DNA of 64,000 bases from a virus (UHGV-1366990); one strand, 5' to 3'; positions 47,322-49,905 are shown, counted from the stretch's first letter. A program made the numbers and translations. The notes: generated by a model from the letters alone, not told the origin.

Positions 47322-47537
47322 ATACCACATCGATGGGATGGGTTGAAAGACTACACGCTTGCACTGGTACTACCCTATGGGAGAGCGCGTCAGGAGTCGA
47401 ACCTGAAGTCGTCGACGTAGAGAAAGCTATTTGCATTTCACTATCCTCGTCGCGATTTTCTTAACTTCCTAAACACCCGATTACGAGAGAGTCGACATGC
47501 ACATCTTCTAACTCTTCAGGAAGTCACGCCCGTAATT

Positions 47538-47626
47538 TGGCGGAAGGTGAAGGATTCGAACCTTCGGGGGCTAAAAGCCCCACTCGATTAGCAGTCGAGT
47601 CCCTTAAACCTCTCGGGCAACCTTCC
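47538..47626 (-). tRNA. tRNA-Ser (anticodon GCU), type II with long variable arm
   Basis: Manual cloverleaf: GGAAGGT/ACCTTCC acceptor, 3-bp D stem, anticodon stem CTCGA/TCGAG, loop CTGCTAA, variable hairpin GGGGC-TTTTA-GCCCC, T arm GAAGG-TTCGAAT-CCTTC, discriminator G, encoded CCA. Confidence 0.85.
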
Positions 47627-47846
47627 AATTTGGACGGGCTTCACACCCGATTGAGCATTTGATCTGCCGTAGCCCAACTCCCCGCGCTTCTCAGCGCCGA
47701 TTGGTTAACTGGCGACCAGTGCCTTCTGGTTCGATCTCCTGGAACTTTACAGGCTTTGCGCCCGACCATTTCTGGAAGTTGGGGCATCGTTTCCGATGCG
47801 GAGTCATCCCCATTTTATACACAGCTGGCTGCAACGCTTACTGTGT

Positions 47847-47890
47847 TTGGTGTGAGTGGATGGATTCGAACCACCGCGCTGTTACACTCA
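47847..47890 (-). ncRNA. tRNA-like acceptor/T-arm minihelix (pseudo-tRNA or processing element)
   Basis: GTGAGTG-TAACAGCGC-GGTGG-TTCGAAT-CCATC-CACTCAC-A-CCA: perfect 7-bp acceptor pairing, T arm and CCA, but no D or anticodon arm. Confidence 0.3.
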
Positions 47891-48148
47891 CATTTGGTCT
47901 GCCGCTGTGTGCTGGGCCACGCTCGAGGACATCGGCCATCCTTCCTCAGCTAATCCACGCAGCGGTAGATTTGTATCAGAGTGTCCGGTGTAGCAACCCG
48001 TGAGGTGCGCACTACTGTAGCCTCTACACTCTGAATTTGGTGGGCGCTACTATCGTCGTCTTCGGATTCCGTTCGGCTATTGGACAGAGGCTTGGAGCTT
48101 GTCGGTCGCGTACTTTATGCCTATTCACTTTCGTTCACACCCATTGTC

Positions 48149-48224
48149 TGGCGACGATGGCAGGACTTGAACCTGCGACATACGGTTTAACAGACCGCCG
48201 TTCTACCGACTGAACTACATCGTC
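48149..48224 (-). tRNA. tRNA-Asn (anticodon GUU)
   Basis: Manual cloverleaf, 76 nt: acceptor GACGATG/CATCGTC, D arm GTTC-AGTCGGTA-GAAC, anticodon loop CTGTTAA, T arm GCAGG-TTCAAGT-CCTGC, encoded CCA. Confidence 0.85.
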
Positions 48225-48249
48225 TTGCAAATCACTATACCATATAAAG

Positions 48250-48262
48250 TTTATTGAACAAA
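48250..48262. promoter_or_regulatory. TTTATTGAACAAA motif (variant of the recurrent palindromic TTTATTGAATAAA) upstream of tRNA-Asn
   Basis: Lies about 25 nt upstream of the tRNA-Asn 5' end on the minus strand; a TATAGT hexamer sits between the motif and the tRNA. Confidence 0.4.
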
Positions 48263-48395
48263 CATTTATTTTACAACAAACTGTATTGGCGGGGTCTGAG
48301 GCTTTTCACCTCACCTGCTGGGTTTGGCCGCCCAGCCGTTCTCTATGAGGATTCACTGTCCGGACAGCTATCCATTAAACTATCGCCCCTCAATA

Positions 48396-48472
48396 TGGTG
48401 ATCCTGATTGGGTTTGAACCAATGACCAATGAATTATGAGTTCACTGCTCTAACCGACTGAGCTACAGGACC
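48396..48472 (-). tRNA. tRNA with CAU anticodon (Met, or Ile if lysidine-modified)
   Basis: Manual cloverleaf, 77 nt: acceptor GGTCCTG/CAGGATC (one G-U), D arm GCTC-AGTCGGTTA-GAGC, anticodon loop CTCATAA, T arm ATTGG-TTCAAAC-CCAAT, encoded CCA. Confidence 0.85.
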
Positions 48473-48684
48473 AAATTATTGTGTACCAACCAAGGACTGT
48501 CAACCCTTTATCCCGTTTGTGTATGATCAGTTCATGCATGCCTCTTTGTGCTGCCTCACGGCATGCGCTTCTGTGGGTCTTTGGCTTGCACCATAGCCTC
48601 GCCACAGGCGTTTATTTTTCCAGGGCTTTCCACTTACAAGTCTTAACCAGACCGGGATACGGGCTTGTAAGATCGGGTTGGACA

Positions 48685-48762
48685 CAACTTTGATAGCTCT
48701 GGTACTAAAGATCCCGCGTCACCCATAGACATGGTTTATAAAATCCAGAGCTATCAAAGTTG
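48685..48762. repeat. 18-bp perfect inverted repeat with 42-nt spacer
   Basis: CAACTTTGATAGCTCTGG at 48685-48702 and its exact reverse complement at 48745-48762. Confidence 0.8.
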
Positions 48763-48783
48763 CACCCAATGCTCTCTCAAGTT

Positions 48784-48909
48784 CACAAATCGAAGTGCCC
48801 TGACTCAACAGTATGGCCCAATATGCTGTTATCGTCCACCGGATTGGCCGCCCAATTTGTAGATCAACCTTTGGGTTTAAGATAAATTGTCAAGACACTT
48901 CGATTTGTG
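48784..48909. repeat. 14-bp perfect inverted repeat with 98-nt spacer
   Basis: CACAAATCGAAGTG at 48784-48797 and its reverse complement CACTTCGATTTGTG at 48896-48909. Confidence 0.8.
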
Positions 48910-49905
48910 TGCCCTTCACCTGCCAGGGATCAGGGCTGATGGCAAGACTTCGCTCACATCTTTCAAGATACTCGTGAGAATATCCTCAAAGATGTGGAGC
49001 CGTTTTTAGGAGTCGAACCCAAATGCTTGGCCAGCGCTGACCTTACATCCCATCTGACTTAGGCAACCCACCTCTGCTTACTCAGGAGCTTATCCCCTTT
49101 GGACAGTCAGATATAACGGCATTGTCGACGGGAGATTATTAATCACACCCTCCCGTCTATTTTAGTGCGCCGAATTTGGTGATGAGGAATCGGAAGACCT
49201 CACTGACTTATAGGCTGTTACGCCGCCATCAGAACTTCGGAATCATTAGCAGTTATTTGCTTGGTCAGTTTCTAAAAACCCGCAAAGTCACTCACAACGA
49301 AAACGAAAACCTGTTTGAGCACAAGACGCCATGTCCTGGGTTCACATCGAAGTGTTTGTCTAATGCCCAAACAGCTTTTCGCTTCAGTGGGTTAACTATA
49401 CTTTGTAACCCGTTATTGATAAAACCTTTTATTTTTGTTGGCGAGGGTATCACCATCGATTTACCGGAACTTACGCATCCGGCCTCGCCTGTTGGTGATC
49501 CTTCGAATCCGGGAAGATCAGTAGGAACTATGAATCAAGTTAATTCAACCAACAGGAACCTTGTTGCCCTTTGACGCAACATTATGAACCCTCTATGGAA
49601 GACTCATAATGTTGTCGGCGTGATGGAGATTAGCGCCCCCGACCTCCCCTTGTGTTGGTGTCGACTTGCCAACGGGGTGCTCTCTATTTCTGAGCTAATC
49701 ACGCTACAACAGGGAGTTTCGTTCTCCGACGGTCAAGTGCGTCCACTGACACCATGCAAGGTGGATATTGACTTATGAAGCCGGAGTCCTCGTCCTAGGA
49801 CTGTGCTTGGCCTCAGCCTTTACACCGCTGGTCGCCCGACTCTTTACACCATAAAATTTACTATACTACAGCCAAGCTAATTTGAAAAGTCCTCTCCTCT
49901 TTGTG

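Follow-up and report, generated by a model that had tools for sequence, protein, structure and literature searches.

A tRNA-Tyr remnant, two probable genes for tRNA-shaped RNAs and a tmRNA-like tag module in the RNA operon of a Vi1-like phage

The window analyzed in this work is the whole stretch of 64,000 nucleotides from the virus UHGV-1366990, whose source is a Vi1-like phage of the Ackermannviridae. Its minus strand carries a tRNA operon spanning roughly 49390 to 47300, in which the genes of tRNA-Ser, tRNA-Asn and tRNA-Met/Ile2 are accompanied by three sites, here named (a), (b) and (c). A preliminary description had rightly noticed minus-strand T-arm-like sequences at these sites, and had proposed decayed tRNA genes, stable small RNAs as in phage T4, or tRNAs with insertions. 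The current work shows that the region is a minus-strand operon built almost wholly of RNA genes, and that the three sites are three different things: (a) appears to be a pseudogene, and (b) and (c) are probably conserved genes for tRNA-shaped RNAs. Three features had been overlooked: the acceptor partner of (b), a third CCA-ended RNA at 48389-48287 and, directly 5' of (c), a module resembling the messenger part of transfer-messenger RNA (tmRNA), which carries a short peptide tag (Table 1).

Table 1. Position, strand and basis of the RNA genes and associated signals in the window
Feature	Position	Strand	Length	Basis
(a), remnant of tRNA-Tyr(GTA)	47848..47891	-	44 nt	comparison with intact relatives, minihelix fold
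(b), tRNA-like RNA	47378..47531	-	154 nt	RNAalifold covariation, covariance model
(c), tRNA-like RNA	48995..49120	-	126 nt	minimum free energy fold, alifold consensus, conservation, covariance model
tmRNA-like messenger (tag) module, directly 5' of (c)	49121..49309	-		relaxed ARAGORN tmRNA call, homologues, covariation
5' hairpin CUGUUUGGGCA.../...UGCUCAAACAG, Ackermannviridae-specific	49302..49375	-		compensatory changes
Promoter-like site TTATCA-16-TATAGT, before the tag module and (c)	49395..49422	-		consensus scan
Intrinsic terminator, end of the RNA operon, 57 nt past (b)	47292..47321	-		consensus scan
tRNA-Ser(GCT), canonical	47538..47626	-		ARAGORN, Rfam at curated thresholds
tRNA-Asn(GTT), canonical	48149..48224	-		ARAGORN, Rfam at curated thresholds
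tRNA-Met/Ile2(CAT), canonical	48396..48472	-		ARAGORN, Rfam at curated thresholds
Third CCA-ended structured RNA, GGGGCGAUAGUUUAAUGG...CAGACCCCGCCA	48287..48389	-	103 nt	conservation, covariation

Related phages were found by a BLAST query of 47000-49600 against 50,697 phage records, 675 of which match. The top matches belong to the Ackermannviridae (Kuttervirus, Agtrevirus and unclassified Aglimvirinae such as the Escherichia phages A221, ZQ1 and RPN242). About 20 loci were retrieved for alignment, out of 199 records with (c), 208 with (b) and 427 with the tag module. Little diversity was gained from IMG/VR, where a flanking-protein search yielded 2 loci and a pattern search 11 known isolates, and no similarity to (b) or (c) was found in 5,426 E. 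coli genomes. The region contains no credible open reading frame, and none lies over (b) or (c). At its two ends, the TATAGT box of the promoter-like site shows no variation in any aligned relative, and changes in the terminator stem are compensated in relatives.

The only calls of standard ARAGORN and Rfam are the three canonical tRNAs, in agreement with the preliminary description. At (a), (b) and (c) the Rfam tRNA model has no match at E<=10, a permissive Rfam scan of 46800-49800 finds nothing tRNA-like, and the intron mode of ARAGORN gives nothing beyond Ser, Asn and Met. Calls overlapping (b) and (c) appear, amid many spurious others, when the ARAGORN thresholds are lowered to 70-80% of default (-ps70, -ps80). 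None of the three sites has the D arm, 5-bp anticodon stem and 7-nt loop of a canonical cloverleaf. The acceptor/T-arm half (7-bp acceptor, 5-bp T stem, UUCRANY loop, discriminator, CCA) is complete in (a). It is represented in (b) by a 7-bp acceptor and a T arm with the tail U-CCCA, and in (c) by a 6-bp acceptor plus an A-A mismatch, a T arm of 3-5 bp and U-CCA. The idea of tRNAs with insertions does not hold for (b) and (c), which are without an anticodon arm and go uncalled by standard ARAGORN, its intron mode and Rfam. When the whole 64 kb was scanned for a T arm followed by 7 nt, one base and CCA, the three tRNAs, (a), (c) and one intragenic site were returned and nothing else; because the pattern has almost no other match, the cluster of tRNA-like sites is not a product of chance.

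Among these sites, (b) is very well supported by covariation in the aligned sequences. It starts with GGGCGTG at 47531, six bases past the CCA of tRNA-Ser, and ends with CTCTCCCA at 47378, as seen with 9 and then 15 homologues aligned. Its T arm, TCAGG-TTCGACT-CCTGA, had been recognized correctly, but the statement that it has no matching acceptor was wrong: CGCGCTC (47391-47385) pairs with GGGCGTG (47531-47525) over 7 bp, and in relatives this stem covaries from C-G to U-A at pair 4 and from G-U to A-U at pair 2. The consensus of 15 sequences (RNAalifold) is a four-way junction. Arm 1 has an invariant 7-bp stem, ACUUCCU/AGGAAGU, bearing two small hairpins; arm 2 (47454-47405) shows compensatory changes in six of its seven pairs; and the 5-bp stem of the T arm, UCAGG-UUCGACU-CCUGA, contains two compensatory pairs. 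In total, 11 of 35 pairs are changed on both sides with 98.4% of cells paired, compared with 0-3 double-changed pairs and 37-45% of cells paired in controls whose 3' partners were slid by 1-3 columns. A tertiary contact is possible between the inner-hairpin loop GUGCAU and the complementary AUGCA of the arm 2 apical loop, both of which are invariant.

The covariance model of (b) matches at exactly the interval given in Table 1. By BLAST, (b) is 94-99% identical in Agtrevirus-like phages and 71-78% in Kuttervirus and Taipeivirus, and it is annotated as an RNA in none of its 208 records. Similarity breaks near its 3' end in four relatives, at 47377 in phiD3 and at 47378 in Vi01, SJ3 and GEC_vB_N6. 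Among the relatives compared, phiD3 and IME250 are without (b). In a P46FS4-like phage it is cut to the final 17 bases, and an 89-nt non-canonical gene, labeled 'tRNA-???' by ARAGORN, stands between tRNA-Ser and this remnant. Other interpretations of (b) were rejected. An acceptor partner GGGUGUU at 47478, which would make a 100-nt RNA, and a 'tRNA-Glu with intron' of relaxed ARAGORN with similar pairing both conflict with the covarying partner GGGCGUG at 47531. A degenerate tRNA-Gln was suggested by a Klebsiella annotation under the match; that tRNA-Gln takes the position of tRNA-Ser, on the upstream side of the (b) homologue.

Site (c) is moderately supported by covariation, again on comparative grounds. 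The pairing of GCCGTTA (49120) with AAACGGC, followed by T and a CCA ending at 48995, had been correctly described. The minimum free energy fold and the alifold consensus agree on a four-way junction. It is composed of a 6-bp acceptor stem (GCCGUU/AACGGC), a 63-nt arm 1 in the D-arm position (49113-49051), a 30-nt arm 2 in the anticodon-arm position (49050-49021) and a T arm GGG-UUCGACU-CCU/C, followed by U-CCA. Of the 199 records, 196 are full-length, and identity is 94-99% in all but four. This identity holds across Kuttervirus, Taipeivirus and the group of the window itself, and the flanks are about 74-86% identical in the same genome pairs, in which tRNA-Ser and tRNA-Asn are 100% identical. 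Conservation begins exactly at G49120, where the upstream neighbors differ by phage, and stops just past the CCA. Four pairs are compensatory: U-A to C-G in the acceptor stem, two adjacent pairs in outer arm 1, and A-U to G-C in arm 2. The covariance model of (c) finds matches in Ackermannviridae only and returns the same coordinates in the window. A hybrid of 158 nt with a different 5' half occurs in the Enterobacter phage fGh-Ecl02. In SJ3 and RCIP0012, a 69-nt tRNA-like element with C73 lies upstream of (c). A pattern scan of metagenomes for (c) yielded a single true homologue; its other 11 matches were tmRNAs of rumen bacteria with AAGGGGAUAAGC and the T loop in common, and these were discounted because such matches are roughly at chance level and AAGGGGAUAAGC lies in a different part of those tmRNAs.

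The third site, (a), had been described as a minihelix with an encoded CCA and neither D nor anticodon arm, and it does fold in this way, one base away from the range first given. On the minus strand it reads ATG-TGAGTG-TAACAGCGC-GGTGG-TTCGAAT-CCATC-CACTCAC-A-CCA (47891-47848), with GTGAGTG as the acceptor 5' strand. The acceptor stem, part of the variable arm, the T arm and ACCA are kept. Between the same flanks, phage fGh-Ecl02 has an intact 84-nt tRNA-Tyr(GTA), whose sole difference is the 40 bases TGGCAGAGCGGTCGAATGCAGGAGACTGTAAATCTCCCCG after GTGAGTG. These correspond to about positions 8-47 of the tRNA, comprising the D arm, the anticodon arm and the start of the variable arm. Thus ...ATGTGAGTG and TAACAGCGCGG... 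adjoin in the window and enclose TGGCAGAGCGGTCGAATGCAGGAGACTGTAAATCTCCCCG in five relatives with an identical intact tRNA-Tyr (fGh-Ecl02, SeKF_19, Ag3, GEC_vB_N6 and L037). A 101-nt query across the junction matches 269 phage records; each full-length match listed is in two pieces spanning 139-141 bases, and none has the deletion. Because no listed match among these records carries it, the deletion is taken to be recent. The retained parts are 100% identical, the flanks are the same, and the anticodon has been removed by the deletion. Judged by these comparisons, (a) is a recent pseudogene formed by internal deletion in a region prone to loss and relocation of tRNA cassettes. In A221 and RPN242, the closest relatives, 47850-48385 is wholly missing, and Vi01 has a clean empty tRNA-Tyr site between ACCAAA repeats, its own tRNA-Tyr being located elsewhere. 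The 40-bp gap may also be an assembly error. Any transcript of (a) would be an acceptor/T-arm minihelix unable to decode.

The suggestion of decayed tRNA genes therefore stands for (a), a tRNA-Tyr minus 40 internal bases, and fails for (b) and (c). In its strong form, in which all three sites are functionless tRNA genes at different stages of decay, it can draw on the certain decay of (a) and on a region rich in deletions (those of A221 and RPN242, the empty site of Vi01 and a gutted gene at 49439-49489). Pseudogenes, however, would not hold 94-99% identity across genera amid diverging flanks, nor would they gather compensatory changes in arms foreign to tRNA, and this explanation is almost certainly incorrect.

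It is probable, though well short of certain, that (a) is a pseudogene and that (b) and (c) are conserved, unannotated genes for tRNA-shaped RNAs of 154 and 126 nt rather than decayed tRNAs. In both, the places of the D and anticodon arms are taken by long arms that are specific to the family and have invariant loops. As modeled, the acceptor stem stacks on a canonical T arm with the loop UUCGAYU, and the RNA ends in U-CCA or U-CCCA. Such an acceptor/T-arm half is the part that RNase P, the 3' trimming exonucleases and the CCA-adding enzyme would recognize. The two RNAs may thus be cut from the operon transcript like tRNAs and would accumulate as stable non-decoding tRNA mimics, as does T4 RNA C (species 1), with their specific arms presumably binding a partner. 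For (c), 3 nt from the tmRNA-like module, a putative role in ribosome rescue would be the most attractive specific function.

The comparison with T4-like stable small RNAs had already been made in the preliminary description. It remains the best description of (b) and (c), as conserved modules with compensatory changes and the architecture of RNA C, and their expression is a prediction. In T4, the 3' end of the tRNA cluster is occupied by rnaC (139 nt) and rnaD (119 nt), on the strand of the tRNAs and with RNA C last; (b) is likewise the last unit of its operon. The minimum free energy fold of T4 RNA C has an acceptor-like stem, two long arms and a T arm CCGGG-UUCGAAU-CCCGG, a layout similar to those of (b) and (c). 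CCA-AAU(U) junctions flank tRNA-Arg, rnaD and rnaC in T4, as in the operon of the window. By this analogy of cluster position and tRNA-like end, (b) and (c) are predicted to be stable RNAs processed by RNase P. Unlike (b) and (c), T4 RNA C has no encoded CCA. The comparison does not extend to kinship of sequence. The covariance model of (c) has no match in T4, including rnaC and rnaD, and that of (b) scores rnaC at 18.2 bits, equal to T4 tRNA-Leu at 18.4 bits. Homology through the shared words CUGAGUAAG and AAACGGC was rejected, as the covariance models gave nothing specific.

Several points weigh against conserved functional RNAs at (b) and (c). The fold z-scores of the sites are weak (-0.9 to -2.0), and for this reason the support rests on the comparison of related phages. 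For (c), a single lineage (GEC_vB_N6/GOT/MK-13, 82% identity) provides all four compensatory pairs, and inner arm 1 is not maintained there; phages outside the GEC_vB_N6 lineage show one-sided G-U changes. The encoded CCA end of (b) is not strictly conserved, being UCCCA instead of N-CCA and UCCCU in the Klebsiella phage RCIP0012. Each RNA is absent from some relatives (Ag3, P46FS4-like, phiD3, IME250), so neither is essential. The likeness to T4 RNA C appears, from the modeled folds, to be one of architecture and not of homology. The roles of RNA C and D are themselves reported as unknown in reviews and in a transcriptome paper of 2022 (PMC3014915, PMC9697503), and the comparison consequently explains form and not role.

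The signals of the operon, among them the promoter-like site and the terminator, also favor a set of RNA genes. Within 1.65 kb (47535-49179), the minus strand contains five CCAAAT motifs where about 0.5 would be expected from the density in the window, a roughly tenfold excess. Three of the five are at the 3' end of an RNA unit, and the others are at 48040 (internal) and 49179, where the CCA is missing from relatives. The unit ending at 49177 (...CAUCACCA) was rejected as a CCA-ended RNA, its CCA being unconserved; SJ3, Ag3 and L011 have CAUAACAAA instead. In several spacers between tRNAs, CCA followed by AAU(U) closes the spacer, and RNA units have been reshuffled between phages as cassettes. 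These last two features would suit cis-acting punctuation, with (b) and (c) as tRNA-like 't-elements' that attract RNase P and the 3' processing enzymes. They would thereby set and shield the ends of the operon transcript and of their neighbors, the tag RNA and the tRNAs, and have no role in trans; (c) is the first tRNA-like unit past the tag module and (b) the last before the terminator. A minihelix, however, would be enough for processing. The long arms hold invariant loops and covarying stems, and (c) is conserved like the tRNAs themselves, beyond the needs of punctuation. Punctuation is thus considered improbable.

The most interesting result concerns the module 5' of (c). The tmRNA mode of ARAGORN at relaxed settings (-ps80) calls a tmRNA at 49375-48995 with the tag ANDSEVLMAA*, with a 3' tRNA domain built from the T arm and 3' strand of (c), and this call exposed the module. 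At default settings it goes uncalled; relaxed settings were required on the window (-ps80/-ps70) and on the phages DS8 and GP-1 (-ps85). The tag is read from 49250-49218 on the minus strand as GCU AAU GAU UCC GAA GUU CUG AUG GCG GCG UAA. A structured leader and the motif AAAUAACU precede it. The UAA that ends it occupies the loop of a hairpin, and two more hairpins follow, the second of them pseudoknotted (GACGGGAG...CUCCCGUC).

Homologues of the tag module, itself unannotated, occur in several families: Ackermannviridae, siphoviruses, DS8-like and Webervirus-like ones among them (DS8, GP-1, P5026, a Sashavirus), the N4-like phages IME11 and Jgk1, and the Grimontviridae phage SE131 (loci L007, L008, L011, L039-L042, L044-L046 and L048). 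The related loci have the tags ANDSEVLMAA, ANDNTFLAVA (in Vi01/CBA120), ANDDVVLMAA and ANDNAYLAVA, and the other families ANEDRFLMAA, ANEERFLMAA, ANDTELLAVA and ANDNAFRVAA. All eight variants consist of 10 codons and UAA, have the form AN(D/E)xxxxxxA and start with GCA or GCU. The distance from UUUAGAAAC to the resume codon is always 26 nt, and AUAAAU or AUAACU stands before this codon. An in-frame stop lies 8 codons upstream, and neither a start codon nor a Shine-Dalgarno sequence is conserved before the tag. The nucleotide differences among copies of the same tag peptide are synonymous third-position changes in six cases of six, which suggests that the tag is translated despite having no start codon. 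Across families the end of the tag pairs downstream and places UAA in the hairpin loop. Compensatory changes are seen at 9 of the 19 pairs that make up the UAA helix, the hairpin after it and the stem of the pseudoknot; slid controls show 1-3.

These characters are close to those of tmRNA (SsrA). Positions 49309-49121 have a GCN resume codon and a short tag ending in hydrophobic-Ala-Ala, similar to the E. coli tag ANDENYALAA. The upstream AUA motif (AUAGUC in E. coli), the UAA in a helix-5-like loop and the following covarying pseudoknot are also shared, and no equivalent of PK1 could be made out upstream of the tag. Rfam tmRNA scores reach 18-33 bits in five phages including the window, below the gathering scores of 47-84; the match of tmRNA_permuted in the window covers 49218-49368 at 22 bits. 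A 5' hairpin specific to Ackermannviridae precedes the module and is missing from the homologous RNAs of DS8, GP-1 and IME11. It shows compensatory changes in fGh-Ecl02/SJ3 (GAGUCC/GGACUC) and in GEC_vB_N6. The siphovirus tag RNA begins at AGAUAGUUUUCG, just upstream of the conserved core, and has its own promoter and terminator. In siphoviruses and N4-like phages, the module runs on into a structured RNA of about 300-600 nt with domains closed by repeated GUUGUGG/CCACAAC stems (L039 1380-1955, L040 1380-1600, L041 1370-1590 and L048 3590-3900, all +). Part of this extended RNA (GUUGUGACCAGCAAGACC...GAGAUGGUGCG) has been recombined into the (c) locus of fGh-Ecl02. Judging from these sequence characters, the module is a tag RNA derived from tmRNA; it is widespread in enterobacterial phages and has no canonical tRNA-like domain. 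A census of 2014 placed phage ssrA only in mycobacteriophages and Bacillus phage G (PMC4131195). Full-text literature searches gave nothing on tRNA-like or tmRNA-like RNAs in Ackermannviridae and no description of the tag RNA.

The neighborhood of the two elements raises the question of whether (c) is the missing tRNA-like domain. In a split or rearranged phage tmRNA, the tag module would supply the resume codon and tag and (c) an aminoacylatable acceptor/T-arm domain. Joined in one RNA or associated as two pieces, they would carry out a reaction similar to trans-translation on the ribosomes of the host. Relaxed ARAGORN joins the two in one tmRNA, and the order of a one-piece tmRNA gene is matched, with (c) supplying a T arm and CCA end downstream of the tag. 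Every retrieved locus with (c) has the tag module as well, and the two share a strand and a transcription unit, (c) following at 3-190 nt. The tmRNA hallmarks of the module and its sub-threshold Rfam matches also count in favor, the synonymous changes argue for translation of a tag, and a tag without a start codon requires some tRNA-like entry device.

The properties of (c) itself do not agree well with this proposal. Alanine identity calls for G3-U70 and A73, whereas (c) has G1-C72, C2-G71, C3-G70 and U73, with A73 in one phage only; the alternative 5' strand of ARAGORN would give U3-G70. No tmRNA family of Rfam matches over 48995-49120, and AAGCAUU, not GGAC, precedes the T stem. The acceptor closes on its own 5' strand, with a compensatory change, and this strand lies downstream of the tag, not at the 5' end of the RNA as in tmRNA. 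The one-piece fold of ARAGORN (5' GCUGUUU with 3' AAACGGC) was rejected, as its 5' strand is within the covarying Ackermannviridae-only hairpin at 49302..49375. The complementarity of UAAGUCAG in the tag module to arm 1 of (c) was also rejected, the pairing being lost in Vi01-type phages, and no conserved complementarity was found between module and (c). In SJ3, Vi01 and IME250, other modules intervene between them.

Distribution points the same way. Of the 427 records with the tag module, 228 are without (c), and the siphovirus tag RNAs are entirely without a tRNA-like part. The complete DS8 genome has the tag RNA, yet no tRNA, tmRNA or T-arm/CCA element. No consistent tRNA-like partner appears in other families; in SE131, an 83-nt non-canonical tRNA-like gene lies about 290 nt past the tag (GCGGGUA...UGCCCGC-U-CCA, with a glycine-type acceptor). 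Since (c) fails the tmRNA-domain comparisons and some phages carry the tag RNA alone, a functional tie between the two is hypothetical. It is therefore unlikely, though with a probability that is not negligible, that enterobacterial phages of unrelated families carry a tmRNA-derived messenger RNA minus its tRNA-like domain for which (c), 3 nt downstream in Vi1-like phages, is a separate acceptor half. In that case (c), with U73, G1-C72 and C2-G71, might be charged with an amino acid other than alanine. If true, this would be a phage-encoded split trans-translation system, of a kind not described before.

A further proposal makes (c), and possibly (b), a decoy for a host tRNA-binding factor, either SmpB or a tRNA-targeting defense toxin acting at the acceptor end. 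Both RNAs keep a canonical T loop and acceptor end and have lost the decoding parts, and (c) adjoins a tmRNA-like module. Mycobacteriophage DS6A provides a precedent, its tmRNA consisting of the tRNA-like domain only; titration of SmpB has been proposed for it, which could inhibit trans-translation (PMC4131195). Like (c), this is a phage RNA with little beyond a tRNA-like domain. Compared by description only, the DS6A RNA is a recognizable tmRNA domain from a host of another phylum, whereas (c) lacks the signatures usual for SmpB binding. No target can be identified from sequence, and the proposal, purely inferential, has a very low probability. Another known form of mimicry is found in YrlA, the bacterial Y-RNA-like RNA, a non-coding RNA with a T-arm/acceptor-like tRNA mimic comparable to (b) and (c). 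Its tRNA-like module is internal and its ends form a Ro-binding stem, unlike the window RNAs, and Rfam YrlA has no match on (b) or (c).

Many genomes of Vi1-like phages (Vi01, CBA120, Det7 and relatives) have been sequenced, and the phages find use against Salmonella, E. coli O157 and Klebsiella. The usual annotation of the 2-kb 'tRNA region' consists of tRNAs and spurious small open reading frames; here the region is seen as an array of structured RNA genes, which default ARAGORN and Rfam settings overlook. As conserved tRNA mimics with covariation and no Rfam family, (b) and (c) would be independent and comparable instances of the T4 RNA C type, a molecule that has posed a question of function for about 50 years. 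The tag module, if real, matters more, with selection at the peptide level and no canonical tRNA-like domain in over 400 phage genomes. Phages would then manipulate or re-programme ribosome rescue beyond current tmRNA surveys, and tagged proteins ending in ...LMAA or ...LAVA would be expected in infected cells.

Other elements were observed in the region. The third CCA-ended RNA, between tRNA-Met and tRNA-Asn, shows conservation in nine phages, Dickeya phage phiD3 among them, that extends from its first G as far as CCA, with six compensatory pairs; it behaves as a cassette, since its position relative to tRNA-Met varies between phages. On the minus strand, a near-consensus sigma-70 promoter (48475-48503; TTGACA-17-AATAAT, 11/12) ends 2 nt before tRNA-Met, a placement that would put the start of its transcript at the mature tRNA or within it. 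A second gutted tRNA-like gene at 49439-49489 (-) keeps GGTGA and ...ACCCTCGCCA with about 54 internal bases gone. Its counterpart is an intact 67-nt T-arm gene in Ag3 (GGCGAGG...GTGTGGTTCGATTCCACACCCTCGCCA), SJ3 and RCIP0012, and is annotated as 'tRNA-Ala' in SeKF_19.

At 48760-48770 (-), the window is without a segment of about 390 nt present in fGh-Ecl02, CECAV_050 and A221 (L001 2727-3114, L002 2648-3037, L023 1855-2241), which has short direct repeats (cattgggtgc / catttggttgc) at its ends and holds the motif GTTTGGTCCGAGCGTTAGAGGACAAGT, also found in Ag3, phiD3 and other loci. Adjoining this site, a nearly perfect hairpin of about 110 nt (48667-48780, both strands), with sub-threshold matches to microRNA-precursor families, is kept in relatives. 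Further non-canonical tRNA-like genes, which default ARAGORN rejects or labels 'tRNA-???', occur in relatives and other families, including a 129-nt gene in Jgk1; the loci are L004 5148-5239 (-), L005 3591-3679 (-), L011 5910-5998 (+), L042 1170-1252 (+) and L046 about 1450-1580 (+).

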